From: Saccostrea cucullata
Taxonomy: Eukaryota
Length of the DNA stretch: 64,000 bases
Reading direction: 5' to 3'
Assembly: GCF_032062105.1 (NCBI RefSeq)
Contig: NW_026928348.1
Coordinates: forward strand, 124,001 to 188,000
Below the pieces are notes generated by a model. The model was not told the origin of the DNA and did not search any database. It saw only the letters and a list, made by a program, of their open reading frames with translations. Position 1 is the first letter of the stretch, and the number at the start of each line of letters is the position of its first letter. The position numbers and the translations under genes are program-made. Positions 29,524-60,401 of the stretch are shown piece after piece.

Positions 29524-29934
29524 TACATGTAACAGGATATTACGTCATAATAAATAAAAGTTGAAAAACATAGCAATTTGAACATATCAATTACATGCCA
29601 TTGGATGTTTATAAGTAACAATTTTTTTTTATTTGGGCAAAATGGGTAAAAATATGACTTAGAGTCCCTTCTCCTTCTCATGCTAAATTGTATAAGCTTT
29701 TTTTCTTGTAATGATCCTCATTTTACTAATACATGTACATGCATCGTGGAGAGTTTGAGCACCAGAGGTCTCATAATTTTTATAACTTTATATATCGCTT
29801 AAGGCAAACCTTTTAGCGAGCAGAGTTCGAAATATATGATGGAATTCATTTTTTTTTCTTATATGTTTTTATATCAGTCCTGATATCTTGATTGTTTCTT
29901 TGTTTCAGAAAACTAATATCCATTCTCACAAAAA

Positions 29935-30630
29935 ATGAATAAATCGTGCAAGAAAGTTTTAATAATAATATATGCTGTTGTGAGATGGCTTCTGGAGGTG
30001 GCAGATTTAGGGCTGGATTGGGACTTTTACATTGAAGTACAACACACAGATCAACAAAGTATTACACGTGCAACAAAATTAAAGAAGGCAATAGTGGGGT
30101 TTGCAGGCATCGGTACCTTTATGTTCACTGCAACTTTACTTTTATTTTGCATAAAAATTTACAAAAAGAGAAAGCAACAAAACTTGAGTAAATCCTATGG
30201 CGATGTCAAGAAAGCTATTTCAGTCTTTTCTTTTTTGTGTACCTGGATTGAGGATCTTCCTCAAATAATCCTAGCTGTTATTGTGGCAGTGAAATCAACC
30301 GAGCTGATTTCCGACGTACAGTTGTGGAAAGCCTGGTATGCTTTAGTGGAAGCATCGTTGCAAGCTAGTATAGCACTCATAGAACTCAAACTGTGTTGCG
30401 TGAACAAGCCAGAAACCTGGAAACGGGTGTTGTTAATCTTGGAGCTGATTGGCATCACCTTTATCTTTCTGCTCAGTGTGTTTTTGCTGATTGAACTTTA
30501 CCAAGATAACTTTCAAGAGATTTACCCACTCCAAAATGCTGCCATGAATTTCACTAGCAACACCACAACTTGGAGCACCCTATTTACTTCTACCCAGCTT
30601 ACGATATTGGACATTTCTACCACACAATGA
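29935..30630 (+). CDS. Small multi-pass membrane protein with XK-like motifs, paralogue 2 (231 aa)
   Basis: LEVADLGLDWDFY and WIEDLPQIILAV; hydrophobic segments; NFTS/NTTT sequons; acceptor ttgtttcag ~26 nt before the ATG. Confidence 0.88.
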   Translation: MNKSCKKVLIIIYAVVRWLLEVADLGLDWDFYIEVQHTDQQSITRATKLKKAIVGFAGIGTFMFTATLLLFCIKIYKKRKQQNLSKSYGDVKKAISVFSFLCTWIEDLPQIILAVIVAVKSTELISDVQLWKAWYALVEASLQASIALIELKLCCVNKPETWKRVLLILELIGITFIFLLSVFLLIELYQDNFQEIYPLQNAAMNFTSNTTTWSTLFTSTQLTILDISTTQ

Positions 30631-31042
30631 CTTATTATTCCCAAGCAAGCTCTTTCAAGTACACTGTGTACTCATTTTGTTCAAACTACGTCTTCAAAGT
30701 GTACAAATACATGTAAATATTCAAATCAAAGTGATTTCCCTAAGCAACTTAAGATTAATTTAATGTTCATTCTACGATACATTTTTTCCGTATATTCTTG
30801 ACTGTACAATTATTGTTATTTAAGAATAAAAAAAAAAAACATACGTTTCATATATCAATAAATCACATCTGCATTCAGGGGTTTATCATTCGAAAAAAAT
30901 AATATGTTAACCAGAAACTTGTGTTCATTTGGAAACATTTGATATTGTTCCTTACCAAAAACATTATGATTTTTTTCCCAATAAAATAATTACAGATATT
31001 CTTTGTTTCATATGTCGTACACACATTTATTTCTGTGTTTCG

Positions 31043-37371: not shown

Positions 37372-38467
37372 AAGATGAAAATATGTCGGCTAATAAAAAG
37401 GCATTATCTCAATCTGATTTCCATCAATTCGTTGGTAGGCCTTGTCTTAGAAGACTAATTGTACATTACTTTGTCAATGAAGAACACTAGCTTCCTTAAC
37501 ATATCTATTTCAGTACTTTTGTGTAGAATCAAGCTGATTCTTGACAGAGTAATTTTGCTGATGTCCTATTAAAAGATTTTTATATTGAAGAACCAATTAC
37601 CTTGATATTAAAAAGCCTAGTTTTTAATTTATTGCAATGATGCCGTTGACCGGTAATGTATATTGTAGAAAATCTATCTTTACATACCATTGTCATAATT
37701 AACTCTTCTGACAAGATTTTCATTTCGTTATAGACGATATTTGGTTATAAAATTGATTGTTTTTTCATAGAGGTATCAGCAGCTCTTTAAAAAAAACACA
37801 CACACACTACATGTCCCACATGTGCGTTTTCTTACTAATGTGTTTTCGTAGTAAATATAATTATGCAATTCAAAATGTAAGTTTAGAGCAATTTGAAAGA
37901 TACATACGCTTAATATGACTACTAGTTATAAGTATAAACCTAAGTATTTCATAATGGACCAATCATATTCTCAGTTAATGTGCTATGTCGGTCCAAGTCA
38001 GAAATCATTCGCAACTTAAAATTTGTAAACACACTGCCTTTCCAATGGACCAGAAAAAAGTATTGATGTTAGAGCCATAATAAAGAATTGCAATTACTTA
38101 TGAGTTATATGACTATCTTTTTTTCTTTCGGAGACAAATGCGTTAACTTAAGAGGAAAAACTAATCATTATCTTTCAAAGAACTTTTTCCTTTTAATTTA
38201 ATGCTAAATTATATAAGCTTAAATGTTTTCCTTGATGTAATGATCCTCATTTTACTTACATAGTGGAGAACTTGAGTAGTATATATCTCATAATTTCTAA
38301 AGCGTTTAAGGCAAGCTTTTAGATATTATTGTGCGAAATAATCTTTTTCAATAAATTCTGACTGCTAATAGAGTCATTAGTTCTTTTTGTTTCCTTATAT
38401 GTTTATAACAATTCTGATATATTGATTGTTTCTTTGTTTCAGAAATTTAATATTCATTCTAACAAAG

Positions 38468-39160
38468 ATGAATGAAACATGTGAGAAAGGTTTAATCATA
38501 ATATATGCTGTTTTGAAATGGCTTCTGGATGTAGTGGATTTAGGGATGGATTGGGACTTTTACATTGAAGTACAACACACAGATCAAGAAAGTATTACAC
38601 GTGCAGTAAAATTAAAACGAGCAATCCTCGGCTTTGCAATCATCGGTACCTTAATGTTCACCGCAACTTTACTTTTATTTTGCATAAAAATTTGCATAGA
38701 GAAACGACACGGAGAAAACAAATCCTATGACGATGTCAAGAAAGCTATTTCGGTCTTTTCTTTTTTGTGTACCTGGATTGAGGATCTTCCTCAAATAATT
38801 CTAGCTGTAATTGTGGCAGTAAAATCAACCGAGCTGATCTCCGATATTCAGCTGGTCAAGGCCTGGTATGCCTTAGTGGAAGCATCATTGCAAGCTACTA
38901 TAACACTAATAGAACTCAAACTGTGTTGCGTGAACAAGCCAGAAATCTGGAAACGGGTGTTGTTAATCTTGGAGCTGATTGGCATCACCTTCATCTTTCT
39001 GCTCTGTGCGTTTTTGCTGATTGAACTTTACCAAGATAACTTTAAAGAGATTTATCCCCTGGAAAATGCTGCCATGAATTTCACTAGCAACGCCACAACT
39101 TGGAGCACTCCAATAATTTCTACCCAGCTTACGACATTGGACATTTCTACCAAACAATGA
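38468..39160 (+). CDS. Small multi-pass membrane protein with XK-like motifs, paralogue 3 (230 aa)
   Basis: ATG at 38468 (MNETCEKG) aligns with the paralogue 2 start; LDVVDLGMDWDFY and WIEDLPQIILAV. The ORF-track extension to 38426 runs into a splice acceptor. Confidence 0.88.
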   Translation: MNETCEKGLIIIYAVLKWLLDVVDLGMDWDFYIEVQHTDQESITRAVKLKRAILGFAIIGTLMFTATLLLFCIKICIEKRHGENKSYDDVKKAISVFSFLCTWIEDLPQIILAVIVAVKSTELISDIQLVKAWYALVEASLQATITLIELKLCCVNKPEIWKRVLLILELIGITFIFLLCAFLLIELYQDNFKEIYPLENAAMNFTSNATTWSTPIISTQLTTLDISTKQ

Positions 39161-40060: not shown

Positions 40061-41131
40061 ACATGTATGTTTCATATGTATATAAATCACATCTGCATTC
40101 AGGGGTATATATCACTTGAAAGTTCATGTTACTCGGAAACTTATGTTCATTTGGAAACATTTAATGTTGTTCCTTACCATAGACATGGTTTTTCAATAAA
40201 GTGATTACAGACTAAGTCTACTATATCCTTTGTTTCAGATGTTGTTCACACACATTCTGTGTTTCATAAGTAAATTGTGTTTTCTTTTGTAAGAACGTAA
40301 TACACGTATATGAGACTTCTTCGGAGATATTTTTCTCAAAATTTTACCCCAGACTTGTAACATAAGTTTAAGAAGTATTTTATTCAAAATATACAAAGAA
40401 GTATACAATATGAATATGGATTGAACAGACTTATAACATTAAAGGTGATTTATAAGGCAGATACCATCTGCTAGAAGATAATCTTACAAATTGGACAGCA
40501 TCTTGGTAGTATCTACGCAGTAGGAAGAATAAGGAAAAAACTCAATTTTCCACTGTTTAATAATATTAAACATTTAAAATAATAAGTTAAAACATTAAAT
40601 AATGATTATAGTATAGATCTATAGAATATAAAAATAAAATACTTCAGAAAAAAAATACAAAGTTAAAAAAGTATTTGATGACAGGCTCTTAACTGAAGTA
40701 AATTTTCAGATTTTTTCACATAAGTAAAAATAATGGTACTTCAAAAATACCATTCTGTATTGCACAAACTTGAATTGATTAGAAAAGTAAACTATCAAAA
40801 AATGGACGGATCACATGATTAATAGCCTAATCATGTATAAACAATTATAGCAGTTGAATATGATAGGAGAGTTTAAAAGAAAAATACTAGAATTGCACAT
40901 TTGTAAATTGTACATATAAACATTACAAATCTTCTAATGTTTAAAAGTCATACGTATATGACAAGCTGTTGTGTTTCCTGTAAAATCTGTGCCCAGCTAC
41001 TGTACGATTTTTTAAAGCAACTGTAGCTTTAAAACACAGTGAGAAGCAAGAGTAGAGTTTTAATTAAAATAGAACAGTGATATCATAGTCTGATATGGTC
41101 AAAATGGAAAAAAGCTAATATTTAATAAAGT

Positions 41132-44100
41132 TTATATTCTTTTTCCTATGTAAGAACATCGCTTGGCTCCGATTCCACTTGAACAATGCATACACAACTT
41201 TCCAGGACACCCCATGAAATCGGCTATTTTGCCATTTTCGTCTTTTCGGATTGCCATATCACAAAGGCGACATTTACCTAGCAATTTACTTTGACCTTGG
41301 GAATGTCGTAAGCAGAGATACGCCTCCGAAACTTTGTGTCCAAAAACATGAGTGCCACAAATGACGCATGCGTCTTTATTTAGCGGAAAGTGTTTTGCTT
41401 TGAATCCTCTGTAGGCATTGGAACATCCTCGACATAGAACTACTGGCATCGTGACCTTTAACACCGGATCTGCTATTTGCATACAGCGTGCCGACTATCG
41501 GTCAGAAAATAAAATTTTAATTATAGAATTTGAGATTCCTGCTTTTAAAACATGAATTATATCACATTCAAATCTTTTAAAACAAAAGGTCAAATTATTA
41601 CATCGATCATTTTGGTCACAATACTATGACGAATTTAAATATTATAATATTTATGATATAAGAAATCCCTTCTTGAGTTCTACAACTATTTCAGTGGTGT
41701 ATATTGTTTAGATAGGTTTCTTTTTCTATCAAACAGTAGCGACTATAATTTAGTTACTTTTCCAAGTCAAAATTAGAAACCTCTGACTCTGAGGAAATAA
41801 GACTTTTCCATCGAAATGAGAAAGCTAGAGTGTCTAAATATATTTTTTGTTCAGCTTTAATTATCATTTTCGATTACATCACCCTTTTGGGACAAAGTAG
41901 TCACTACGAGACATCGGTAAAATAAGTCAGAAAAGCTCACTTAAGTCTATATCTTAAGTATGCTGAGAAAGCTTGATGGAATCAATTTAAAAATATTAAA
42001 CCATAATTATAAGAAATCGCCTTTTCTTTAAACGTGTTATTTTTTAGGTATATTTTTCAGTAAAAGAAAAAAAACGAAAATCTCACCTGTAAATACATAC
42101 TTCTCATGTAGTCACCTAACATCGCAGCACTCTCTGAATGGTGGATGAAATCAACCAATCTATCAATGAACATGTTCTCTTAATATTCTTGCTCCTATAT
42201 ATTCATATACATGTACTAATAAAACAAGTCACTCAATAAATTAATTAGAAGAGCAATAGACAAAACATACTTATCATATAATTCTGCACGTTGACAATGA
42301 AATGGCACCTTCAGTCTTTTAACGACATTATTGGCACACCAGGACATGAGATAATCAACTATGACAGTATGGTACATGATCTGTGCCTTTTTATCATTCA
42401 GATACAGTTTTTCTATGTTCTAAAAAAAGAAGTATTTTAAACTTCAGAATACATGTAAATCATGCTTGGTTCCTTTTGAAAAACATAATTGAAAATTTCT
42501 TCAGCTTATCTACCTCATAAAATGCCCCATGAATGAATCTAATGTTCCTGTCCACACCGGCCATGTATGTGAAAGGCTTGAGAGCTCTACGTATTTTAGA
42601 CCAATACAACGCAGGAATTGGTTCTTGTATATCCATATCCCCAAGAATATTCTGCATGTCGATTTCAGGCAACCCCTGCGTTAAGGCTAGAATACTCAAT
42701 GCCTAAAAGATGTGAAAGGTATAATATTATCCATCACAGTGGTATAATACATAATCATATTATCATATGTATTATATTATCCACAGTATCATATTCTTCA
42801 TCGAGGTATTATTATACATCGCGCGAATAACAGAATTCTATAAAGCCTTCACATTTCAGGCATCTTTTAAATAGATTTTACCTATAAATAATAGCATGCA
42901 ACTTTATTTCAAATATGCTCTTTCTAACACGGCACAAAACATACTTAAAATTTTGAGGAAATATTGAAACAGACAACCAAACAACAAGCTGAACCAACAT
43001 GCAAAAGGACTACCAAACAAACAGTTTTAACCTAACAGAGATTAAAAATAATCGATTCAACAAAACAAAGTATTAGTATAAGACCTTTTCCATTTTCCCA
43101 CTATCGTCATTTGCGACTAGATCTCTAAGAATACCCTCAAGAAGTCCATCCACAGAGTCAGATAGTGACTGTATGTGCTGATTCAGGGTTCGGAAATCTC
43201 CAAATGTCCTCAACTGTTCTGCTAGAAGGGTCAGCCAAAGTGGATTTAATGAGCTGGGTTTAGACAAAATTATATCCATTTGATCGTTGTCAAGTTTCTG
43301 CGGAGAAAAATGAAGAGCATACATTAATTTTGTGTTGATGATGTGTAAATACTAGTATTTGAAATAATTTAAAGTTATTAACGACGTACAAAAAAATCTT
43401 GTGTCTCTAACAAGCCAAGAATCTATTTAAGTTTTTCTTTTTCTCCAAAACTCTGTTCATAGATGATACAAAATTTCTATTTAATTTTAAGTATTCATAT
43501 ATGTAGCTAATTAATAAAAGATCGCATAAATCAAAGCTTACCTTATTAAACATGATAAGATATTGAGCGATGATTTCTTTGGCTTCTGATTTTTTCAACT
43601 GAGGAATATTTATGAGGAAACATGTGTGTTCCTTCAATCGATGGAGTGTGGGTAAGTGATCACTGGATGTAGAAACAATGGCTCGAACATTACCGGGAAA
43701 ACGAGGAGGCAACCAACTTAAATGTTTGTACTGGTCTCGATCTGCTAACTTTATAAATATGAAAAGTCAAAAAAAAATTAGTTTCACTGCTTCTTTTAAA
43801 ATATAAAATGCGATACTTAAAATCAGATTTCTTGCGAGGAAAAACAATTGTTGATTACTTGAACAGGAAGAATAAAACTCACTGTGTATTTGCAATTTGA
43901 TTTTAGACTACATAATGCAATTGAAAATCATATTAATTCAAATACAGACATGATTACCCACTTCGTTCATACCATCCAAAACAATCAATATTTGATTTTC
44001 TTTTTGTCGCAGTTTCGCAAACTCTTCTTTAATTACTTTCATACAGAACTCTGTAACATCACTGGTGTCCTCTGGAATATCTTTATTTAAAAGAAAGGTT

Positions 44101-47100
44101 TAAATCATTTCTCAGCTTTTAAAATACAGCAAAACATTTGGGGGGGGGGGGGGGCAAAATGATTATCGTATTTCTTTTCAACTGCTGTACATAGTTCAAT
44201 GACAAAGAAATTATTAAATATTAAGATCAATTGTAAGAGAATCCGTTAAATGCAGTCTGAGAAAAAAAAAATCAGATAATATCATTGTTAATACCTATTT
44301 GTTCTCCTTTGAGGAATTCTGCCAATCGCTTCAGTAAAATATTTTTCTGAACACTATTTTCAGAAATACCAACAAAATGGTAAAATACTTTCAATCCCAC
44401 CTACAAATTAAAGAGAATGAAATAATGTTACATGCATGTACCCATTATTTTCACAATTTTTAGCTACCAACGAAATTGTATACCTATATCTCTGGATTTT
44501 AAACTAAGTCCTTGAATTTAACTCAATCAAATATAATAATATAAATATAAACTGTTGTATATGTAAGCATCTGCTCTAATTAAGTCACAATATTGTGCAA
44601 AATTAAAATAATGATAATGCGAATATAATCTTTCAGAATATCCAGTCACTGTTCCTGTATATATTGTCATTTATTGACATCCAATGATATGTAAACATGT
44701 AGGTAGCTTACACACTTTTAAATCCGGTTATCATGCTTATTTATTCTTATGTAAACATCTCACTTTTTATAGGTAAATGTACTATATATGCACATGCATT
44801 GGAAATAATTAATTTATCGTAATTCTATATTTTCTAAATAAATACTCGGGCCCGAGATGATGCGCTTATGATTTTTGATCGGGATCGAGATTCATAAAGG
44901 AAGTTGTTTACACAGAAGGGTGCAAATGTGAGTACTCAGAGAAGTCAAGATTTTCTTTCTTTACCATGTTTACAGGGAGAAACATTTTTTGTCAGTACCA
45001 AGTTATTACTGTATTCTGGGATCTTAACCAAATTTTATTGCTTGTTCATTAGAGTGAATGTTATAATTTAAAAAAAAGAGTGCTCAATAATACATTGTGA
45101 TTAATATAATCACTATAGTTGACTATGCAATAACTACATCAGTTTCATGTGTTTATTATCCCATATCTTATTATGATATCTATATAACTGTCCATTCATG
45201 ACATTTTCCTATAGAAAATGTCCAATTGTGTTAGGGTATCGTCTGAAAATACAAAAAATAAAACTATATTCTGTACATTTTCTTAAAAAAAAAAAACCAA
45301 CAACTTTTTTTTGCAAACTTGATGTTTCTTATTTATGTGTTTACATATGCCCTGATGTGTAAACCATTCTCTATATTTCAGAAGACAAACAACATATTCT
45401 AAAAGATGGACAAGTCATGCAGAAATTCTTTCATCATCCTATATGCTGTTGTAAGATGGCTACTGGAAGTAGTAGATTTAGGGCTGGATTGGGACTTTTA
45501 CATAGAATTGCAACATACAGATCAACAAAGCATCATCCAGGCAGTAAAGCTTCAGTGGGCAATCCTGGGATTTGCAATCTTTGGTACTGTTATGTTCTTT
45601 TCCACTTTAATTGTATTTTGTATAAAAATTTACAAAAAGAGAAAGCAAGAAAACTTGAGCAAATCCTATGAAGATGTCAAGAATGCTATTTCCGTCTTCT
45701 CTTTCATCTGTACCTGGTTTGAAGATCTTCCTCAAATAGTCCTAGCTGTAATTGTGGCAGTGAAATCAACTGATCTGATTGCCTACATACAGTTGGTGAA
45801 AGCCTGGTATGCCTTAGCGGAAGGATCATTGATAGCTATTATAATATTCATAGAACTTCGATTGTGTTGCGCTAATAAGCCTAACCATTGGAAGCGAGTG
45901 CTGTTGATTTGTGAGCTTATTGGTATCACTCTGATCCTTCTGGGCAGTATATTTTTGCAAACAGAGCTTTACCAAGACAATTTTAAAGACATTTATCAAA
46001 TGGAAAATGCAGTCATGAATTTGACTAGCAATGCCACAACTTGGAGCACTTTAGTTACTTCAGTATGATGTCTTTGTATATAATCATTAACACTGAACAA
46101 GTGAAGGGATTTATTTTCAAATTAAACTGTTCCCTGAGCATAGGATTTTTCTGTGATAATTTTTTTCATATCACATAAAAGGGATACATGTGTATATTAT
46201 AAGTCCCTGCATATGCAAATTGTACATATCTTATTATTCACAAAGTTTAAATTTGCGTGAGGGTGTCTATGGTTTTGTTTAATTTATACTTAATGGTATA
46301 TATCATGTATATACACTACAGTTACTTTATATTTTGTATATAGTAAGTTCTGACTTTTTTGGTCAACACTCAGCACTTTCAAATGACTATGAATCAATGA
46401 ATCACATCAGCAAGCAGGTGCATATTGTGTTAAAAAAGATCAAATAACACATATGACTACCGTCATGAGAAAAGGGCCCTTATCTTCTGACGTCACAATG
46501 CTCATAAAACGACGTCAAAGTCGCGGTATTGAAAACACGGAAGTAAATGTTGTCGAATACGTTTCGTACACAAGAAATAAAACTGGATTTCAAAGTGTTA
46601 TAAAAATTCTATATGTATTTGATACGGACATTTTTTAAATATATAATATTATTATAATTTTTTTACTATTTAGTACGTGAATTCACTGATTCATAATTCT
46701 ATTTAATTAAGTATCTAACTTGATGTTGATATACGCGACATTGGACATGCACATTGCTAGGAACAGCCATAAAAAACAGTGTATATGCCTGACTAATTTA
46801 AAGATGCTGCTTATTTGGGTTTTTTTTTTTTTTTTTAGCAATTTACATATACATGCTTAAATCTGATTCATTGTAAGAAGTTTTAATATAAAAAGGTGTA
46901 TTCCATTTTGCACATGTATACTTTTTTTCAGAGAGAGCGAGCGGAAGATCTTACTTACATAGTATTACCCTTTATAAACGCTACTTCTTGCTGTAAAATT
47001 TATACCATAATTTAAAATGTTAATTCATTTTAATTTTAATCCATAGTTAATCATACTGATGTACCCCGATTGCCAGACCACATGAACTGTCGATTTTCAT

Positions 47101-50100
47101 TTATGTGTTTGTGTGTGTATGGGGGGGGGGGGATAAGTAGCCAGGCCAAAAAAAAAAATCTCCGAATACCGGTAAAAAGACAACCGTTTAAAACATAACT
47201 CCTCTTTGATTGGATATAGATACTTGTAACTTGAGAGATTAAAACCTTCTACAACAGCAACAAATAATTCTATACTAAATTAAAAGTGAGAGAATATGCT
47301 AAGGATATGCTAATATTCTAAGGAGAGAAAAAAAATACGGAGGGTGGGGATGCCATAACAACTTTGCTAAAAATAATTTTTTTTTCAAAAACTAATTTAA
47401 AATGATCAAATACATGTAAATACACGGTAAAAGTTGCTAAATTGTTTCAATTTTCATAATTTTTTCCGGTAAATGGAATCTCACTCGAAACTGAACTGCA
47501 ATATGTTTCAGAATTAAATACAGCTATCGTAGAGTTTTCCCTAAAGCAAATATACTCAATGTTAAAGAAATTAACAATGTTACATCGACAGTGATATTAT
47601 AAATGAGAATATTTATAAACCAGAAGAAAAATAAAACAATATAGATTAAGCGAAAAACAAGTGATTCTGGATGTAATTTCCGAAAGTTGTGAAAACGTTT
47701 AAATCGTGAGCCACATTAACATCAAACCTTAGACAACAAATTAATGAATTCTGAATTTTAGAAAGATAAAAAAATAAAATTAATGTAAGCATTGGTGATG
47801 TTAAATGCGGAAAAAAGAGGTTCGTGTAAAACTTTCATGAATGTAAAATATATTTTACTGACTATTGTAATAATGATATGAAATTTAAGCACATTTTTTA
47901 ATGAAATCTTGGACGTTGAGTCTCAACTCTGATACATTTACCAAAATACTCCGCATATAACGAGATTAATTTCTTCCGTTGTAATCAAAATACTTAAGTC
48001 TATTTCATAATCTTAATATGGCTTTAAAGAAAGGAAATAATAAACAAACACAAATATTCTTGCTGTTAAAGAAAAATATTGTCTATTACATGTATATATA
48101 GTCGCTCGCAAGTACCAGGGGTAGGGGGTACATTGAAAGTCCAGTTGCCCCCCCCCCCCCCACATTTATTGCTGCAGAATACTCAAATTCGCGCACTACA
48201 GGACAAGACAATAAAGAGTCTGAAACTACCCCCCCAATGGAATTTTCGAGTTTAGACAGCCAAACCCCCATTTTTAGTTACAATTTTAGAGGGAAATTGA
48301 TTTTTTTTCCTGACTTTCCCTTGCTGTGTGGGGACAGCTAGGCGGAAAAAAAAACAAGTGGTGTTTTTTTTTTATTCAATTTCGAAATATCGAGAAAGTA
48401 GTATGTTTTGAAATAATAACTAAGAAGTATTAATTTGCCTAAATATTTAAGAGAAGGGTGTAAAATTAGAGTGGTAGATTAATACTTAACCGCACCGCCT
48501 CGTACAAAAACCATAAACGTGTGTTGGACGTAATATTTTATTATAAGTTAATGCAATCTCATTGAAATGTGAAAACCCCAGGTGTCAGGTTAGCCGATGT
48601 CACGGAGGAAGATGAATAGATGACCTTTTATGGCCGTTGACCCCCCCCCCCCCCCCCTCCAAAAAATACGTAAAAATATCTTCATTCAGGTTCAGTTTCG
48701 AATCGATTTCGTCAAACTTGTAATGGGATTGTAATTTTGCACAAAAACGTTAAACATCGTTTAGTGTGCATATATTAAAAAAAGACAAGAACGAACAGAT
48801 AACCATCTCTTTGGTGACATTATACAAAATACATGTACATCTTTTTTTTTTATCCAAGTAGCGTTCCTTGTAAGAAATATACATGTGTTATGTTCAAGTG
48901 AAACAGGGCACAGAAAATCAAAACAAGAAAGTGAAATGTGAAGAAATATTTTTAACCGATTTTAATTGTGATTTACTGAAAAAGAAAGAGGTTAAAAGAA
49001 GGATTCAATTTTATAGGTACAGTTTATAAACCATTTATAAGACAATCCTTTCACATTACTGTTTGCCTCTTTATTATGTTCCTACTTCATAACTAAAACA
49101 GGTGAGGAAAATGAATTATATAAATAATGGAAATTTGCTTTAAACATTTGAAAATATTCAAAAAGTAAAATACGCTTCATGCAAGTAGCGAACATATTTC
49201 TTTTAATTCAGAATTGTTATAAAGGAATAAACTTTTTTTACAAGTTTGCATGAAACTTTTTTTAAAACAAGTTTATATATCTTGGCGTATTAGAATTTAT
49301 TTCTCATTCTATTTTTTCGGCGATACAGAGAATACAGTTTTTTTTAATCCTATCGTAACAGTTAAAGAGAATTAAGTTACGTGCGTGTGTTTGTGAGTGA
49401 ATGCTGACTCATAACCGAAAATTATACTTAAAAAATATATCGGGATGGATGTGCTATTTTGCGAGGAGATGTCCCAAATCGTAACTAAGGGCCATTTCCG
49501 TACGAATGAGGATGTCCCGTTTTTGCCATTCGTAACTACTCGGCCATTTTCCGAGAAAGAGTAAATGACAAATACATCCATCAAACTTTGTGTTTGTGTT
49601 ACTTTTATATGGATGTGATATGCACAGGCACTTGTATCTGTAATATTTTTTTTACCCATAGTATAATAATAACACAGTGTTATTATTATACTATGGGTAA
49701 AAAAAATATTACAGATACAAGTGCCTGTGGTGATATGGTCTACATAAGGTTATAGATGTGTGCAAAAAACTAACTTCAGTGAACTTGTTAAATTAGTTAA
49801 ATTACACTGGAGAGCATAAAGAGAAATATTATTTATCGTTCACGGTCCAAATGGCCGAGTAGTTACGATTGCCGTTTTTGCGTGCGGTGTCCTTCTGATC
49901 TCTCTCTCTCTCTCTCTTAATGTTTAAATGTTACAAGTACTTTATATATTTTTTTTTTTTTTTATAAATTGAGCTACATTATTTAGAATAAAAAGATAAT
50001 TTGTGTGGGTTTAATTAAGTATTATTTTTCCTACTGGATACATTATAAACCGTTCTTAGATTTCTGTCTAGAGTCTATACCCACATCCCCCTTCACGTAA

Positions 50101-53100
50101 TTACTAGATATGCTCTAAAATAGAATTAAAATAGTAATAATATACGAAATCCCTTAGGAATATTTACATACTAATCGCTTGGAAGAAAAAAATTAATATT
50201 TAATCAAGTTTGTAATCCTCAAAACGTTTGAGGTTACTTAAATAACGTAATTTTTTTTTTTTTTTGGAAATTGAATTAGACGCAGGCGACGTCATTACTT
50301 TTTCCGTGAGTAACGTCAAAGTTGTTTTGGTGCGCCCTTACTAAAATGCTTGTAAAATACTGAAAAAATGAGATATTTTCATAATTTATGTATATTTGCA
50401 TTCAGAAAGAGTCCGGCTATCAAAATCTACAAAAAAGTCAATTTATGAAAATTTGACCTTAAGGGCCCTTTTCTCGTGACGGCAGTCATATCAATATTCA
50501 TATTTTTTCATTATGTCCATCAGGTTTTGTGAAGTCAATTAAAAAGAAATCAATGAGTACTGATTTTGGATACCTATACATGTATATAACTAATTGTGCA
50601 AAAAGCAAAACGTTTTTCATCTTGCATGAATATGAGAAGCAGATGATTGCATGTTTTGGTTAGCTTTTTTGTTTCCTTTCATTTCCTAACCAGGTTGTAT
50701 GTTTTGTAATGTAAATAATTTTTTTCATTGATAAAAAGATATTTAATAAGAAAGTTATACATTGTAAGATTCTTTATAAAATAAAATTTATTTTCCATAA
50801 TATTGTTTCCATATCTATTTTTTTAAATTGAAGACAAGATCACAGAAAAGGTCTCAGTAAAAAAAAAAATGTTGATTCAGTTGAATAGCTAAGAATAAAA
50901 AATTTGACAAGCACATCAACCATGTTTTTGACAGGGCATAAAAATGTTGTAAAAGTAGCTAAGGGGTACCATATTAGAAAGTTTGATGTTTGTTAAGCAA
51001 AGGTTGTAACAAATTTTGAGCTGGTTTTATGACCAAATAAGCAGAGGAAAAATAATCTGTCCTCTTTTATCTAAAAGGAGAAAAAAAATATGTTTTAACA
51101 TTACCTTCAAAGCTCTTTTCACAAGCTTTGCCAGTAAAGATGTTTTTCCTTGGCCTACTGCTCCAGACAAGCAAACCATCAAATTGTCACCATCCTCACA
51201 TTTCCAGAATTCAGGGTCCCCTGTGCATTTTTTAATTTAAATATCAAATCCTTTGAACTGAATTTTTTGTGAATAATATAAGGTTTTATCAATTCCACCG
51301 TGCCATAGCGTTACTATGATGCAATTATTCCGTAACGTATGATGAAACGATTCCTTATGGAGTTTTTACATGGAGATTTGACTAAAGTAAGTTAATGTCA
51401 TATGTGTATGCCTTAAACGCAAAATAGCCCTAATTGTGTTAGCCGTTGCATTATAGGAATGACACAGGCATCTGTTGACATAACGGACAATGTCCAGTGA
51501 TGCGCCGTTTTCTTAAACACTTTGCACTTTCATAATAAAGAGGCTTATAAGTTCAATTTATTCATAGAACTTTTTTCCCAACCAAGGTACAAGATCAGCT
51601 ACAAGTTTACCATAATGAAAATTTGTTGTTTTTCCATTTCACTCTAGAATTGTGATGAAAATATTTATTTAATCGCTTTTAACATGGGTTTTTAGAAGTA
51701 ACGTATGATGCAACGATTCCCATCGTCAGTAACGTGCGATGCAACTATTCTTTAATAATCGTATCATTAGACCAATATGTTGGATTTCTTTACTAGGACA
51801 CGTTTCAAAGTACGGTAATAAAATTACTCATTCCTTTCTTTTTATCACAGAATACCAAATGGTTTAGAAAAAAGCAAAACTTGACTGTAGAAGACAGTCA
51901 ACTTTGACTAACTTTTGTAATACATTGGCCAGCAAATCGTTTTGATAGTTGTCTTGATGAAGAATCGAAATATATCATCAACGGAGCTAGGTGACTGAGA
52001 GTGTTACTTATGCACAGATGGTGATGCAGTTCTCGAAAGTATTCTCTCATACTTCGGAGAATAATTGTTGAAAGCATGACCATGGGCTTCACTCAATGTC
52101 CAATCATTCTATAATAATGCACACTGGGGACTTTTTGCAGTGTTTCAGTTTGGGGTATCAGCATGTCTATTTTTGGATTTAAATGGGGTAGAAAATTTTC
52201 TTCTTTTCGGAGTTGGGTAAGAGGATGAAATGACTTCATTCTTGCTTTACTTTTTTCTTTTAGCCGTTCTATAGTCAAGTTTTATTTTCTAAACCATTTG
52301 GTATACTGTGATAAAAAGAAAGGAATGGGTAATTTTATTGTCCTATACTTTGAAACGCGTCCTAGTAATTAAAGAAATCCAACATATTGGTCTAATGATA
52401 CGATTATTAAAGAATAGTTGCATCGCACGTTACTGACGATGGGAATCGTTGCATCATACGTTACTTCTAAAAACCCATGTTAAAAGCGATTAAATAAATA
52501 TTTTCATCACAATTCTTGAGTGAAATGGAAAAACAACGAATTTTCATTATGGTAAACTTGTAGCTGATCTTGTACCTTCATTGGGAAAAAAGTTCTATGA
52601 ATAAATTGAACTTTTAAGCCTCTTTATTATGAAAGTGCAAAGTGTTTAAGAAAACGGCGCATCACTGGACATTGTCCGTTATGTCAGCAGATGCCTGTGT
52701 CATTCCTATAATTCAACGGCTAACACAATTAGGGCTATTTTGCGTTTAAGGCATACAAATATGACATTAACTTACCTTGGTCAAATCTCCATGTAAAAAC
52801 TCCATAAGGAATCGTTTCATCACACGTTACGGAATAATTGCATCATAGTAACGCTATGGCACGGTGAATTCTAAAAATCAACCAAAATATAAGCACACTG
52901 GTATAGAAGAACTGGAGCTGACAACCATCCAAATGTTTCGGACCATTGAGCTATCATCTGGAACCATATAATGGGAAAACGGGTCGGAGCATCCACCCAA
53001 AGCATCCTAGCAGTACAAATTTAAACTTTCCTGAGGATGTTCGCATATTAATACATGTATGATTAATCAATTTGAGATTCTTACAGATTTTGATACATGC

Positions 53101-56100
53101 ATACAATATTGTACCTATAAGTCCAATACAAAACTTTCATGAATCTTCACCCTACCCCTGGCCAAGGCCAATATTTGAGCAACCCTTCTAAGTGACCTAT
53201 AAATTTAGGGACCAGCTGGCTTCTAATTAAAAAAAAAATGGTTGCCATTGAAAATTTTAAGTCTCCGAGTAATTTTTCTTAGATTCCAATTTAATATCAG
53301 ATTAAAGTTGATACATGGAGACATGTCCATTGCTTATCTTTTAAATTCTTTTATGTCCTTTATTATTATTTCTTCACATAAAAAAACATGTTTAATTTAT
53401 CTCATTCTTTTACTTTAAAATAGAATCTATACTTACGAACAAATGCTGTTTGTTCCCCTACAATTAAAAATATACTTCTTAGTATGCCAATTAAAACAAT
53501 GTAAAAACAATGTCAAGATATTATTTAGTAATAAATAGACACGTTTTTTCTTTAGATGAAAAATTTTTAGTAAAAATGGACAAGTAAATAATAAGAAGAA
53601 AGCCTAAACCATCGCCTAAGTATTATTCAGCTGTTATTGTTATTAATAAATACCTTCTATTTTATTCAAAGTGAGTTCCTCGCCTTTAGCATATGCCAAC
53701 AATTTATCAATTAATACATCCTGTCCAATAACAAAATGGGATTTCCTCTCCATAAAATGAATTTGTTCTTGGTCCTCCAAAGCTATTGACAGAAGAACAA
53801 AGAAAATTGGTTATTTTTAAAAATATAATTATTCATAATTAAAATATTTCAACCATTTCTTTTTTATTGGATTGGAGTTATATTGTTTATTGATAAATTC
53901 ATAATTCATTTTCTTCTTTTTAGCCATAAAGAAAATGCATGATCTTTCCAATCTATACCTCTGTCATTTTCTGTTTTTGTTGTGTTTGAATCTGGATAAA
54001 ATTGTGAAATTCTTGATTTGAAAAAAATTAATGTTTTCTCTGCAAATTTGTCTAGATCTTCCAGTATCACCTGGATAAAATAAAACACCAATAACATAGT
54101 AATAAAAAAGTTGTTGATCAAATTATCATATTAAAATTGATCACTTTTATCATTTTAAAAAGTCTACACATACAGTAGTGTAGTTAATTCTTTTAATCTC
54201 AAACACAATATCACTGTGATTAAATACTTTAAGATATGTAAGGATTCAAGAAAATGAATTTAAAACACAAAGAGAAAGACTGGTTGGGATTTCTCATGCT
54301 CTTGGAAATTTTCATAGTATGTGTATTCCAGAATTCGACATTTGAGTTAAGTACATGTACATGATTCAACCATGCTTGTTCCAAGACTAAAAGATCATAA
54401 TTCAATGGGAGGTTGAAATGGTAAACTATATATAAACTGTGTAACATAGTTACAAAATATCAAAACAATTTAACAAAAGCTTACTCTCTTTCTTCCAGCT
54501 TTCTCTGACACTCCACTATATTTACAGTCATAATCAAAAACTTGATTTGGAAATTTGATTTTGAGCTGTTTTTTCAACTCCTGAAAAATAAAAGATGAGG
54601 AAAAAATAGTATCTAGCTGTTGTCTGTTTTAGTTCAATCTAGCTGTTGTCTGTTTTAGTTTAATTAGAGTAGTCTTTAAGGGACAGACACCCTTATTGTG
54701 TGTGTGTGTGTGTGTGAGGAGGGGGAGGGGGGGTCAAAGCATTCATCAAGTATCTGACTGCATGAATGCTTTACAATTACATGCATTGTTTACAAAAACA
54801 TAGTTTTAATAAATACTATTTTTATACCTTAAGTGGTGAGCTTAAAAATTATTGATCTGCTAGGAAAAGTCCCTCTCTTTTAACCATGTTACAAGGGGTC
54901 CGTGCTTCCTAGAGTGGGATGGAGGTTTTCAAGGTCCACTTTTGGTTACTTTACATACTAGAAATTCAATAACCCTGAGAGACATTCCACTCCATCCCTT
55001 CTAGATCTGAGCAATTTTTTTGACCAAGCACTTTTTACATTCAGTTTGCTTTAAAGGACTAGTACTTGCATTTCATTTTCGTAGTGTTCGGAGTTTATAC
55101 GGTAATTATTTTGTCACTTTTTTCTATATTTAAATAATTATTTTGGAAATCTTGATAGCTGTCACAATTTTTATTACACAAGTCTTTTATCAAACAAGAA
55201 CCAACCCATTTTTTCTGTTATTTTCTTACAAGTATATATACTTTAAAATTAGAGAGAAGACAAACCTTCAAGTGACATTTGTTCAAGATTTCCTTGTCAA
55301 CAAATCTTTTTCGAAAATCTTCTGGAATATCATTTATGACATCAGAATTACGGAAGAAAAACACTGCATTAGGATTACATGACCTAGCAATAAAAACAAT
55401 CAATTAAATTTAATAAACAGTCAAGATATGTAATTATAAGGGTGATCTCAAGTATGTATAGGAAATGTACAAAAAATCTTTTTAAAGCTCTTTCACTTCA
55501 AAGCTTCGATTTTTATTTTTGAAGAGGTGTAGCATTATCTAGATTGACAAAAAAAAAATCTGAATTAACTTAGCCAAATCTACCACTTAACACAAAGTAA
55601 CTTTATTTTGGGAGAATATAAAATACACAGATATGCTATACAACACTGAGTCACCAATTGATGGTGACTAAAGTTAAAATTATCATTTTTCACAAGCTAC
55701 ATTTTTCATACCTATACGCTCCATGCAGAATCTCCATGAAAGTGATTGAAGTGTTAGGTACCCACATATACAGATCTTTTAAATCGTTGCTAAGATCTTT
55801 CCCCTCTGGAATCCAGCCATACCTACAAGTGAATTACATATGCTGTAGGTCATGGACATTGGGATTTGATTAATACTGAATGTCCTCTGAAGATGAAATC
55901 CACATGATGCTAAGAATAATAACCTTTCACCCAATAAATTGATAAAGAATGGGCATCCATTAGTCTCTGCATGACACCAGTCTAGCTCCTCCAAACAACA
56001 CTGAATGGTTTCCTCCGAGTCAGTGTCCTTTGGTACCCCCCATCTGAGATCACACTCCACAAGACGAATGTTCCTCTCCTCACACCACTCCCTCAACTCA

Positions 56101-57175
56101 GGAAACACCTGTTCATTAAGTAAAATTAAATGAAAAATATATACACTTAGCAATATTTTTATCTTATATATTCATTCTTACCCCACATGTGTGTAGAAAA
56201 TTTAGAGTTTATTACACATGCATACCAAAAGTTAGATAGAATGTTCTATCGTTAAAATGATATTGTCCTACGGACCCGGTTTAATGATAGAATTCGTTCA
56301 GTGTATTCGTAATGTAGCAGAAAGAAACACGGGCGATAACTCGCATAGTGCATTTACTAGGAACAATCTAGAGAGTTCCGAATGTAGTAATTTGAATCGA
56401 GAGAAAAACGTTGAGAAAATTAATTGGATTTTCGTATATATATGGATTATTTTATGGGATAAAAGGCATAAGCAATCTCAAAAAGGTTTGTTTTGATTAT
56501 TTTGGTAGTTATTCCCAGTGCAAATAATTTTATATTCTTCAAAATCGTTTCGGAGCGGATCCGCTCCGATTTGCTACATTACAAGTATATGGGACGTATT
56601 CTAACTGTGGTGAGGGCCTGTACCGAGACACAGTTAGATTATTCTAACTAACCAAAAGTTAACCTATCTAAACAAACAAAAATTCTGGGCTATATACCAA
56701 AGAATGTTCCAATATAAACTGAGTACCTCTATTTATAGTAAAAATATCTTTTTATGCAATATCCTAAATTTAATTCTCAGCTTGATTTTCAGCTCTTAAA
56801 TTAAAAGGAATAATATTTAATCGAAATATTTGTACCTTCTTCACTAAAACTTCTCTTTCACAGAAGAAATCAGTAAATGTTGATGACACAAAAACTCTCA
56901 CGATCCTCCATGGACCCTCTGCACCTTCCTCTGAAGAATTCCTTGCGCGGACTTTTTCGTTGTTTTTGCATTGTTCCTCTACAAGTTTCCAGCAGGCATC
57001 AACTATTTCTTTGGCTTTAGCCTTTTCCTTAAAATAAACAATAAAAAATCGTCTGATTAGCAAGCCAATATTCAATATCTAATCAAAAGGAATTATACTA
57101 AATACTTCCAAGAACAAAACACTGGTCATTCACCCGTTTTTCCTGATTTTCTGCCGTCCGATATCGTCTATACAT
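41132..57175 (-). CDS. DUF4062-NACHT (TEP1/NWD-like STAND NTPase) with C-terminal Cys-rich PHF5-like domain; 18 exons, ~846 aa
   Basis: Hand-spliced GT-AG exons with consistent phases: 57175-57134, 57027-56836, 56108-55924, 55822-55712, 55383-55266, 54580-54485, 54070-53959, 53782-53654, 53457-53437, 51220-51105, 44400-44295, 44080-43962, 43748-43542, 43297-43085, 42702-42514, 42419-42271, 42159-42087, 41494-41132 (2541 nt). Motifs: RVFVSSTFTDF..ERE..VECDLRWG, Walker A GAVGQGKT, YHFVG, Walker B ILIVLDGMNE, SWLP, NPLWL, FIH. Confidence 0.88.
45406..46068 (+). CDS. Small multi-pass membrane protein with XK-like motifs, paralogue 4 (220 aa), nested antisense in a NACHT-gene intron
   Basis: LEVVDLGLDWDFY and WFEDLPQIVLAV; acceptor tatttcag ~24 nt before the ATG; lies in intron 51104-44401. 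Confidence 0.88.
   Translation: MDKSCRNSFIILYAVVRWLLEVVDLGLDWDFYIELQHTDQQSIIQAVKLQWAILGFAIFGTVMFFSTLIVFCIKIYKKRKQENLSKSYEDVKNAISVFSFICTWFEDLPQIVLAVIVAVKSTDLIAYIQLVKAWYALAEGSLIAIIIFIELRLCCANKPNHWKRVLLICELIGITLILLGSIFLQTELYQDNFKDIYQMENAVMNLTSNATTWSTLVTSV
46454..50488. mobile_element. ~4-kb non-autonomous TIR DNA transposon, TA-flanked
   Basis: ta|TGACTACCGTCATGAGAAAAGGGCCCTTA...TAAGGGCCCTTTTCTCGTGACGGCAGTCA|ta (2 mismatches). No transposase ORF seen; superfamily not assigned. Confidence 0.75.
49623..49729. mobile_element. 107-bp perfect hairpin MITE with 8-bp TSD (P- or hAT-like)
   Basis: gtgatatg|CACAGGCACTTGTATCTG...CAGATACAAGTGCCTGTG|gtgatatg; the arms meet at aacac-a-gtgtt. Confidence 0.85.
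51296..52866. mobile_element. Foldback element with ~590-bp TIRs, CAC termini and 5-bp TSD (Transib-like)
   Basis: aattc|CACCGTGCCATAGCG...CGCTATGGCACGGTG|aattc; near-identical inverted arms at ~51296-51890 and ~52270-52866. Confidence 0.85.
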
Positions 57176-58928: not shown

Positions 58929-60272
58929 CTATAATTGATTTAAAATATTTTTAAATGTTTTGATATCACTGTCATTTGCATACTTCAACAAAATTCTCTT
59001 TGCCATAATAACATCCCCTTTACTTGGATCAAATGACTCCCATACTCGCTCGCATTCTTGCTGATTAAATTTTGAAGACTTCTCCGAAAATCCAAACCAC
59101 AAATCTTTGTAATCATTTTCACATCCATTACCATAGTAACACAAAAGTTTAAGTGCAAAACCTACAGAAGACCAAGATCTGTAGGCATGAGAAATTTCAT
59201 TGTCATACAGTTCTACTAGATTTTTAACATCCGTAAAATAGGGGGTCACAATTCTGCCAGTAAATTTTGGGGAAATTCTTGAATAATTCTTATTCTTGTC
59301 CACTTGATTTTGACTTGAACACAACTTGGATTTCAGGGAATTGTACATACTTAGTTCCTCTTCTCCAGATTCTTCAATGGACTGAATTTCTCTTTTGAGA
59401 TCTTCCCCAGCTGCATCTGATATTTGTGAACATTTCTTGTACCTAATAGAGAATCTGTCCACCCAATAAAAGACGTCACTTTCTGAATTCAAATTTAGTG
59501 TAAATGGCTGTAACCGTTCACCATACTTGAAAACATAATTTACAGCATAAGGATAAAGATCACAATGTTTCTGAGAACCAAGCATGAACCAAGGATTTTT
59601 ACCTATCTGGTCAATAACAATTTTAAACTCCTCCTCCTCTGAAGTCTCTTTTTTAACAGTTTCCGCAATGGGAATGTGAAATAGTTTATTGTGTAGATTT
59701 GTTGGAAAAACTAAGTCAGGGAAAATGGCATGAATTCCTTCCTTGTTTCCACTTTCCACAGTCAAATTCTTCTTTCTCTGCATAATATAAGCAACAAGCA
59801 ATCTATCAGTTTTTACAGAGAATGGATCAGGCAGATATTCCAAACTCTTCTCAACATAAAGATTCAATAAATGTTCAATATACTCTTCACTCAGCCCAGA
59901 TGAAGAAGAATCTTTTTTCTCAACGTCCACATCAACTCGCAAGGGAGAATATACTGTGGGTAATTCTAATAATGTCATATACTGACCATCAATGACCGCT
60001 CTAGAATATTCTCGCAAAAAAGTCTCATTATCTACTTTTGGCACATGAAATTTTCGGGGTGGATTCATGGATACATGTGTAATAGGGGTGTCCTCTGATT
60101 TTCTTTCTATCCCATATCTTTCAGATATAGCTTTCCTACGAGCAAATGTATTCATGATTACATTTTCATCTGTTTTCCATCTATCACTGAGAGAGAATTT
60201 TCCATTTGTACAACATCTTGTGAATGTATCTTTCCATACTTTGTTCACTCTTTGTGGATATTTTCCAAGCAT
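58929..60272 (-). CDS. AEP-superfamily primase with PriCT-2-like C-terminus, resembling the primase half of large-DNA-virus D5-type proteins (447 aa)
   Basis: Motif I PLRVDVD, motif II KEGIHAIFPDL, motif III IVIDQ followed by PWFMLGSQK. C-terminal YRSWSSVGFALK..LWFGFSEKSSKFNQQECERVWESF fits PriCT-2. Uninterrupted ORF with aaaATG context; no helicase domain. Confidence 0.8.
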   Translation of the reverse strand: MLGKYPQRVNKVWKDTFTRCCTNGKFSLSDRWKTDENVIMNTFARRKAISERYGIERKSEDTPITHVSMNPPRKFHVPKVDNETFLREYSRAVIDGQYMTLLELPTVYSPLRVDVDVEKKDSSSSGLSEEYIEHLLNLYVEKSLEYLPDPFSVKTDRLLVAYIMQRKKNLTVESGNKEGIHAIFPDLVFPTNLHNKLFHIPIAETVKKETSEEEEFKIVIDQIGKNPWFMLGSQKHCDLYPYAVNYVFKYGERLQPFTLNLNSESDVFYWVDRFSIRYKKCSQISDAAGEDLKREIQSIEESGEEELSMYNSLKSKLCSSQNQVDKNKNYSRISPKFTGRIVTPYFTDVKNLVELYDNEISHAYRSWSSVGFALKLLCYYGNGCENDYKDLWFGFSEKSSKFNQQECERVWESFDPSKGDVIMAKRILLKYANDSDIKTFKNILNQL

Positions 60273-60401
60273 TTTCAATGCAAATCTTCAAACCTAAAAC
60301 ACAAATACATGTATAAGTAATACATTGTATAAAGCATTAAAGAAAAACAATCCCTACAGTATATATAATATGTAAGACATTATGAAATAAAAGAAAACTT
60401 A

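Follow-up and report, generated by a model that had tools for sequence, protein, structure and literature searches.

A DUF4062/NIR-NACHT protein of the oyster Saccostrea cucullata ends in a predicted PHF5-fold zinc knot

Introduction

What can stand at the C-terminus of a NACHT protein in place of a repeat solenoid, and what could it do there? This question is raised by a gene on the minus strand of a 64,000-nucleotide stretch of DNA from the oyster Saccostrea cucullata (contig NW_026928348.1 of assembly GCF_032062105.1, positions 124,001 to 188,000; hereafter referred to as the window). An original prediction, made from the letters of the window, held that the last exon of this gene encodes a zinc knot resembling that of the spliceosomal protein PHF5A/Rds3, and that this exon is spliced to a DUF4062-NACHT mRNA. 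Here we report that the feature is real and that the gene encodes an NLR-like NIR-NACHT protein with a previously undescribed terminal domain.

DUF4062, or NIR, is a TIR-like NADase of phage defence and of human TEP1, according to the main texts of two preprints, in which NWD1, NWD2 and NPHP3 were inactive under the conditions used (10.64898/2026.05.01.722283; 10.64898/2026.09.04.749371). The words 'zinc' and 'PHF5' are absent from these main texts. We found no account of the NIR-NACHT-knot architecture in the literature searched, of which subscription coverage was incomplete and preprint supplements or figures may list it; nor did the same, incompletely covered literature yield a description of prokaryotic PHF5-like proteins. 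The available text of the PHF5A structure paper describes three zinc ions held by knuckles 1 and 4, knuckles 2 and 5, and knuckle 3 with two single cysteines, in a trefoil knot, and calls the fold unique, shared only by Rds3 and without another counterpart in the cell (PMC5458519). Rds3p is treated only as three treble clefs in the available parts of two other papers (PMC4506424, PMC4999995), and PMC11788884, as far as its text was available, is not relevant.

Results

The last exon is spliced to a DUF4062-NACHT gene

The interval 41132–41494 on the minus strand is an open frame of 120 codons followed by a TAA stop. A search for longer proteins with its translation gave 2 matches from 2,173 candidates: P0002, a protein of 846 amino acids that is identical to the window over this exon, and P0003 of Crassostrea gigas, with 73% identity. 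P0002, labelled by NCBI as 'TPR repeat-containing protein DDB_G0287407-like [Saccostrea cucullata]', lies letter for letter on 18 GT-AG coding exons running from 57175 to 41135. Pfam assigns DUF4062 (PF13271) to its residues 58–150, with 37.2 bits against a cut-off of 24.7, and NACHT to residues 350–513, with 45.1 bits against a cut-off of 26.7. No TPR, WD40, LRR or other superstructure repeat was detected by Pfam in P0002 or P0003 at E values up to 1, and the cysteine-rich domain is terminal, just as had been proposed.

RNA reads from four of the 24 listed runs (X1, X2, X22 and X23) were placed on 40600–44600. The 41494/42087 junction, with 41495–42086 skipped exactly, was crossed by 31 reads with 23 start sites in X22, by one read in X23 and by one contig in X2, while X1 had no spanning read. 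Thus, the exon map and the spliced reads bear out the attachment of the exon to the DUF4062-NACHT mRNA at the very junction where cDNA confirmation had been sought. Eight homologs known only from Logan contigs of 2.9–6.0 kb (P0010, P0018, P0020, P0041, P0045, P0071, P0074 and P0097) likewise have NIR, NACHT and knot in one protein, and the fusion is therefore supported independently of the oyster gene model.

The reads are mostly 90–99% like the window and therefore come from other individuals. A large share of the RNA reads and contigs from these individuals carry frame-shifting indels, at 41389, 42602, 43154 and 44367: two letters are inserted at 41389 in 52 of 69 X22 reads (0 of 5 X23 reads), and one letter at 42602 in 26 of 32. 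These indels suggest that a broken allele or paralog of the NACHT-knot gene is abundantly transcribed.

Within the oyster genome the gene is apparently single-copy, as judged from two tested exons, which gave one match for the NIR exon and one close match for the helical exon. An open knot exon (98% protein identity) with its acceptor is also present on two further contigs (L013:8150-8512 and L014:4041-4403; G000 C23792 and C8022), which are 98.7% alike over 5.9 kb. Upstream of it, no other exon of the gene was found within 8 kb and 4 kb, respectively; the contigs represent either an orphan duplicate or another haplotype, whose last intron would be much longer.

Twelve zinc ligands are invariant in a fast-evolving domain

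The exon product presents its putative ligands in the order C4; C21/C24; C43/C46; C61/H64; C75/C78; C101/C104; C113, and the cysteine pattern and short strings originally quoted are all found in the 120-codon frame. None of the twelve ligands varies across the 70 relatives aligned. These 70 rows were chosen, from 121 stored proteins, for having at least four CxxC motifs in their last 170 residues (P0048 was omitted by hand); the four CxxC are thus partly selected for, and the ligands independent of the selection are the CxxH and the two single cysteines. Because all twelve ligands are invariant in all of the aligned domains, the pattern is not a product of chance.

The third knuckle, CxxC in PHF5A, is CxxH in every one of the 70 members. 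Apart from the ligands, few positions of the knot are conserved (R3, F31, N39, K40, G47, A58, L100 and G107), and C96 of the oyster domain is not among them. The knot is basic, with a median net charge of +8 (range +3 to +13) compared with +1 for the PHF5A core. The sequence after the last cysteine is short (median 6 residues, maximum 10, in the 70 members), and the basic RNA-binding tail or helix of PHF5A is absent. Mean pairwise identity was 53% for NIR, 31% for NACHT, 41% and 30% for the helical regions and 19.5% for the knot with its ligands excluded, which makes the knot the least conserved part of the protein.

The knot is predicted to adopt the PHF5A/Rds3 fold

An AlphaFold2 model of the knot, based on a 68-row alignment, had a pLDDT of 91.1 and a pTM of 0.83. 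In a Foldseek search with this model, ranks 1–15 were all PHF5A, Rds3, SF3b or spliceosome-entry chains of 81–109 residues (E 0.079–1.1, TMt 0.38–0.65), and rows from other entries, including RING and PHD domains, had TMq of at most 0.23. Among 48,161 PDB representatives, VIA-align listed two chains at Z of at least 2, both of them PHF5A/Rds3 and none of another fold: 5zya_D (PHF5A; Z 5.9, root-mean-square deviation (rmsd) 3.3, 83 residues aligned) and 5gm6_J (Rds3; Z 5.6, rmsd 3.5, 84 residues aligned), both collinear with the knot and 20–23% identical to it. The twelve ligands and the PHF5A match argue against a RING, LIM or PHD finger; no such row was listed by VIA-align at this Z, an absence that does not in itself exclude them. 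A search for viral structures resembling the knot returned none (best E 1.2). These results predict that the knot adopts the PHF5A/Rds3 fold with three zinc sites, and we infer from the collinear superposition that the zinc pairing is as in PHF5A. The PHF5/Rds3-like character first proposed for the domain is therefore upheld by the model and both structural searches, as well as by the transitive profile link described below.

The knot thus shares with PHF5A/Rds3 (PF03660), a subunit of SF3b in the U2 snRNP, the ligand order of a single cysteine, five knuckles and a single cysteine, a collinear predicted fold and a threefold internal repeat. It differs in its CxxH knuckle, longer loops, lack of the basic tail and identity of about 20%; whereas PHF5A is highly conserved, the knot is fast-evolving, fused to NIR-NACHT and below the Pfam cut-off.

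Direct sequence comparisons gave little. A Pfam scan of P0001 returned 0 families at E values up to 1, and phmmer against the PDB found no PHF5A, its best row being ribosomal uL5 (E 1.3). The 11 PDB rows matched by the knot domain profile at E values up to 10 did not include PHF5A. The oyster's true PHF5A, which is encoded by a separate four-exon gene elsewhere, scored 4.5 bits with the family hidden Markov model (HMM), and at best 8.2 bits over 89 circular permutants.

The original prediction had, beside the cysteine pattern, matched three strings to PHF5A. The likeness stood up, but not as collinear matches: scoring of the cysteine-free flanks against the oyster's own PHF5A gave z values of 2.8, 3.05 and 4.07 for three registers (5,000 shuffles). 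Because all three registers score above shuffles, the out-of-order strings reflect the fold's threefold internal repeat. The string order had also suggested that the knot might be circularly permuted with respect to PHF5A; we do not claim this, given these three registers and the collinear structural alignment.

The knot defines a family of NIR-NACHT proteins

P0002 matched the domain structure of human TEP1 (PDB 11gz) with an E value of 1e-21. With the TEP1 chain numbering fixed via R908, R954, R976 and E1008, TEP1 E1008 aligns with E170 and R976 with R140 of P0002. Of 67 knot-bearing members, 66 have E170, 65 have R140, all 67 have the Walker A residue K361 and 65 have the Walker B residue D445. 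The N-terminal domain is thus homologous to the TEP1 NADase, with the catalytic glutamate present, and is a predicted NADase. Compared with the layout of a STAND NACHT protein, the N-terminal effector and Walker A/B are present, and the C-terminal superstructure repeat is absent.

The DUF4062-NACHT-helical layout is shared with human TEP1 and NWD1/NWD2, from which the oyster protein differs by its size, the lack of TROVE, vWA and WD40 domains, its 120-residue zinc-knot end and the loss of R908. The bacterial proteins NIR-Avs2 (PsAvs2), Swarozyc and Vulcan, as described in the available texts, also place a NIR NADase under a C-terminal sensing region; they act in phage defence with TPR, HEAT or other sensors and have demonstrated activity, whereas the oyster protein is known from sequence.

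A search with residues 40–480 (NIR-NACHT) found 793 proteins among 8,000 scored, of which 120 were listed. A whole or partial knot was present in 73 of the 121 stored NIR-NACHT relatives, the others being long-tailed or truncated-looking; the family HMM matched 72 of the 121, adding P0048, P0056 and P0066 and missing the seed P0067. Named carriers include bivalves, gastropods, a chiton, Lingula, nemerteans, Helobdella (partial), a rotifer, corals, anemones, Trichoplax, echinoderms, a hemichordate, amphioxus, a lamprey, salamanders and frogs. A domain profile of 25 rows (A2) gave 118 matches at E values up to 0.001 among 1.84 billion representative proteins, and the 20 of these that were looked up add the choanoflagellate Monosiga brevicollis (P0204, E 2e-5), Seison, Priapulus, Polypterus and Pelobates. 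The architecture is thus spread from Monosiga and Trichoplax to bichir and amphibians, an answer to the question of its distribution across animals. Amniotes, teleosts and arthropods, at which no search was aimed, are missing from the carriers named and would be apparent losses. Because P0204 carries the knot, the domain is at least as old as the choanoflagellate-animal split.

In a FastTree phylogeny of the NIR-NACHT region (136 of 138 proteins), 25 long-tailed and 6 unlabelled proteins fell on one branch (support 0.995), apart from all 88 knot-bearing proteins. An IQ-TREE analysis of 57 hand-picked rows gave a single label change between 40 knot-tailed and 17 long-tailed proteins (SH-aLRT 98); the trees are unrooted and do not give the order of knot and long tail. 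TPRs follow the helical region directly in 8 of 9 long-tailed proteins scanned, and the knot therefore stands where the sister proteins carry TPRs. This sister group of DUF4062-NACHT-TPR proteins (NPHP3-like, DDB_G0287407-like), the closest NIR-NACHT relatives among the matches listed, differs in having TPR arrays instead of the knot and is separated from the knot family by one split in the tree. Members of the knot family go under misleading names in databases, such as 'telomerase protein component 1-like' and 'TPR repeat-containing'; the family takes in about 70 database entries that are called 'TEP1-like' or 'TPR-containing'.

Several copies of knot-family genes (P0256 and its cluster; P0039/P0053; P0044/P0045) were seen in Pelobates, there on one chromosome, and in amphioxus, and possibly in corals. 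This contrasts with the single copy seen in the oyster.

Prokaryotic three-repeat proteins link the knot to PHF5A

PHF5A itself is absent from the 118 profile matches, which do contain small bacterial proteins in which a unit of about 30 residues is repeated three times almost perfectly: P0189 (E 1.2e-7) and, further, P0164, P0199, P0201, P0217, P0218, P0222 and P0223. Six of these eight pass the Pfam PHF5 cut-off of 26.7 bits, with 30–34 bits; P0199 falls below it at 26.0 bits and P0222 has no match. When a six-row profile of the small repeat proteins was searched against PDB sequences, 12 rows were returned, of which the eight best were Rds3/PHF5A, with E values from 7.9e-5 to 2.7e-3. These matches establish, at the level of sequence profiles, a transitive link from the knot through the bacterial repeat proteins to PHF5A.

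The strength of this link was assessed with shuffled sequences. The bacterial HMM gave the NLR knots a median of 18.5 bits (at least 20 in 31 of 70; oyster, 18.9), whereas 1,400 cysteine-fixed shuffles of the knots had a median of -1.7 and a maximum of 13.8 bits. PHF5A scored 17.0 bits against a maximum of 4.9 in 20 shuffles. HHalign returned 98.7% for knot and bacterial repeats (E 1.8e-16), 55% for knot and PHF5A and 69% for bacterial repeats and PHF5A, PHF5A being entered as a single sequence. Knot, bacterial repeats and PHF5A are thus three related branches, and on the HHalign values the knot is nearer to the bacterial one.

We also screened a collection with one genome per species. Of 169 pattern matches, 72 were confirmed, all in metagenome-assembled genomes: Myxococcota 25, Planctomycetota 17, Bacteroidota 13, Lentisphaerota 6, Pseudomonadota 4, Elusimicrobiota 3, Thermodesulfobacteriota 2, one unassigned bacterium and one archaeon. 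A reading frame was recovered in 68 of these 72 loci (L015-L086). Split, unsplit and seven-knuckle forms occur among the proteins, most of which begin with a Tat- or Sec-like leader; a Tat-like motif was found in 29, the split-end layout of PHF5A and the knot in four and seven knuckles in five. Their paired knuckle repeat, as in P0189, P0201, P0217, P0218 and P0223, is the same as in the knot, and the Lentisphaerae proteins resemble it further in the split-end layout and a CxxH knuckle in the second repeat. They differ from the knot in being stand-alone, near-perfectly repetitive and, for the most part, circularly permuted.

No neighbour gene was common to the bacterial repeat genes across phyla, and the three largest neighbour clusters proved to be shadow frames over the repeat gene itself. 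A model of P0189 was too poor for use (pLDDT 57.6, 6 sequences), and the bacterial fold rests on sequence; P0223 had only scores under 0.8 in the Atlas. Another profile match, P0227 (E 8.9e-4), with rubredoxin and choline-binding repeats, was treated as false. P0210 (501 residues) begins with a CxxH-type knot, after which come ankyrin repeats and a UBA-like domain.

These results point to two additional branches of the PHF5 fold, one at the C-terminus of a NIR-NACHT family conserved in animals, the other formed by symmetric bacterial repeat proteins, so that the fold likely extends to bacteria. The symmetric repeats show how a knot can arise from a unit of about 30 residues. They are possibly the symmetric ancestor of the PHF5A knot; their symmetry could be ancestral or could have been regained via repeat amplification, and the bacterial genes are rare.

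An origin of the 'spliceosome-type', in the words of the original prediction, is not supported, given the age implied by Monosiga, the low non-ligand identity, the missing basic tail and the greater nearness to the bacterial repeats; the best reading is that the knot is a third branch of the fold and no captured copy of spliceosomal PHF5A. The same evidence bears on the suggested integrated decoy, in which the knot would mimic PHF5A and trap a pathogen protein or toxin aimed at SF3b. An integrated decoy, as known from plant NLR work, is a recent, lineage-restricted copy of a host target that is still similar to it. The predicted fold and collinear ligand order would suit a decoy, as would the aromatic residue that 56% of members have in line with PHF5A Y36. 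However, the bacterial repeats have a tryptophan there, so that the aromatic residue is likely an ancestral trait and not a sign of mimicry, and the knot originated before animals, reaches from Monosiga to amphibians, is closer to bacterial proteins than to PHF5A and has only the modest structural identity given above. We consider a decoy very improbable.

The invariant CxxH, which sets the knot apart from the all-cysteine sites of PHF5A, could instead mark a redox or metal switch, with oxidation or zinc loss at the single Cys3His site unlocking NACHT. Many bacterial repeat proteins, however, have CxxH at the same knuckle, so that it is perhaps merely inherited, and such a switch seems quite improbable.

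The lone knot exons on the two further contigs and the weak direct scores to PHF5A could, lastly, be taken to mean that the exon lies outside the NACHT gene or that the PHF5 likeness is a chance cysteine pattern. This is largely refuted by conservation, splicing, fold and shuffle results, namely the reads across 41494/42087, the domain endings of the stored NIR-NACHT relatives and the gap between real knots and cysteine-fixed shuffles under the bacterial profile; we regard an artefact as hardly credible.

Discussion

We propose, with a probability of somewhat under 60%, that the oyster gene encodes an ancient NADase-effector NLR-like protein whose knot gates its activation. The knot would act as both sensor and lock, keeping NACHT closed until a ligand binds; binding would then lead to NACHT oligomerisation and alignment of the NIR domains, and thereby to NAD+ depletion and cell death or signalling in an immune role. 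Autoinhibition, oligomerisation, NAD+ depletion and immunity are proposed here by analogy to APAF-1, Avs and TEP1. A polyanion, RNA or a ribonucleoprotein (RNP), would be the most likely class of ligand because the knot is basic and PHF5A contacts RNA, and would suit the nucleic-acid sensor suggested in the original prediction; this is the weakest step of the proposal.

Several observations count against this proposal or its parts. As to the fold, direct sequence similarity between knot and PHF5A is not significant, Pfam PHF5 (PF03660) was found in only 3 of 25 members with a best E of 0.01, below the gathering score, Foldseek had no match at E 0.001, and the VIA Z of 5.9 is middling (below 8). 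As to the effector, TEP1 R908 is not kept, position 66 being T, A, H or D, a conserved glutamate is no guarantee of activity, and in the Monosiga member, which retains the knot and the NIR motifs, no clear Walker A can be recognised. As to the gene, many reads carry frame-shifting indels, so that the junction reads are not assignable to an intact copy. As to a sensor, the knot has diverged no further than NACHT when the two oysters are compared (69% versus 64%), and the gene looks single-copy in the oyster, unlike the expanded families typical of pathogen receptors.

The main rival explanation is that the knot is a constitutive docking or localisation module, which anchors NIR-NACHT either on a host complex or RNP, much like TEP1 on the vault, or on a partner sensor, and serves a housekeeping or helper function with no pathogen sensing. 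The one close copy of the two tested exons in the oyster genome and an architecture fixed across animals are consistent with this, as are the scaffold role of PHF5A, which contacts SF3B1, SF3B3, SF3B5 and RNA according to the available text of PMC5458519, and the in vitro inactivity of several human NIR proteins in the main texts of the two preprints (10.64898/2026.05.01.722283; 10.64898/2026.09.04.749371). A conserved partner, however, predicts a conserved surface; few non-ligand positions of the knot are conserved, and some of them look structural, since the bacterial repeats have several of them too. We consider docking unlikely and favour gating by the knot.

A broader scenario is more speculative, and we hold it to be doubtful: animals may have inherited from unicellular ancestors a third NLR-like class, in which the sensor for foreign or mislocalised RNA is one PHF5-fold knot instead of a repeat solenoid and sets off NAD+ depletion, with knot and PHF5A both derived from a symmetric three-repeat bacterial protein. 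If true, such common descent would give the 'unique' PHF5A fold a prokaryotic origin. The DUF4062/NIR NADases in any case gain a small eukaryotic member (846 residues) with one compact regulatory domain, and with it the switching-on of eukaryotic NIR-NACHT proteins becomes directly testable.

Features of the locus

The exon map of the gene is given in Table 1.

Table 1. Coding features of the NIR-NACHT-knot gene, in window coordinates.
Feature	Position	Strand	Basis or remark
PHF5-fold three-zinc knot (predicted), last coding exon (aa 727-846 + stop)	41132..41494	-	ligands C-CxxC-CxxC-CxxH-CxxC-CxxC-C; predicted fold
Last intron, 592 nt, GT-AG, phase 0; between helical region and knot	41495..42086	-	exon map, spliced reads
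Helical and winged-helix region after the NACHT core, four exons (aa 519-726)	42087..43297	-	domain names inferred from STAND layout
Exons of the helical/winged-helix region	43297-43085, 42702-42514, 42419-42271, 42159-42087	-	exon map
NACHT ATPase exons (Pfam NACHT aa 350-513)	43542..51220	-	Pfam, exon map
Individual NACHT exons	51220-51105 (Walker A K361), 44400-44295, 44080-43962 (Walker B D445), 43748-43542	-	
Linker exons (aa 286-336)	53437..53782: 53782-53654, 53457-53437	-	exon map
DUF4062/NIR TIR-like NADase-domain exons (aa 15-286)	53959..57027	-	human TEP1 domain match aa 54-258
E170 codon, aligned with catalytic E1008 of human TEP1	55732..55734	-	exon map and sequence
First coding exon, ATG at 57175	57134..57175	-	exon map

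Intronless paralogous frames for multi-pass membrane proteins lie at 45403–46068 and 38426–39160, both on the plus strand, with a similar stretch near 29845–30672; none matched a Pfam family over its cut-off, and one of them lies inside the NACHT gene, within its 6.7-kb intron and in antisense orientation. An intron of the gene contains an inverted repeat at 51284–52876, with arms of about 610 bp and 95% identity; this is likely a DNA transposon of the non-autonomous kind. An intronless frame of 452 codons at 58929–60287 (minus strand), just upstream of the gene, matches AEP_C962R (E 2e-36) and PriCT_2 (E 6.6e-12) and looks like a primase derived from a mobile element or virus.

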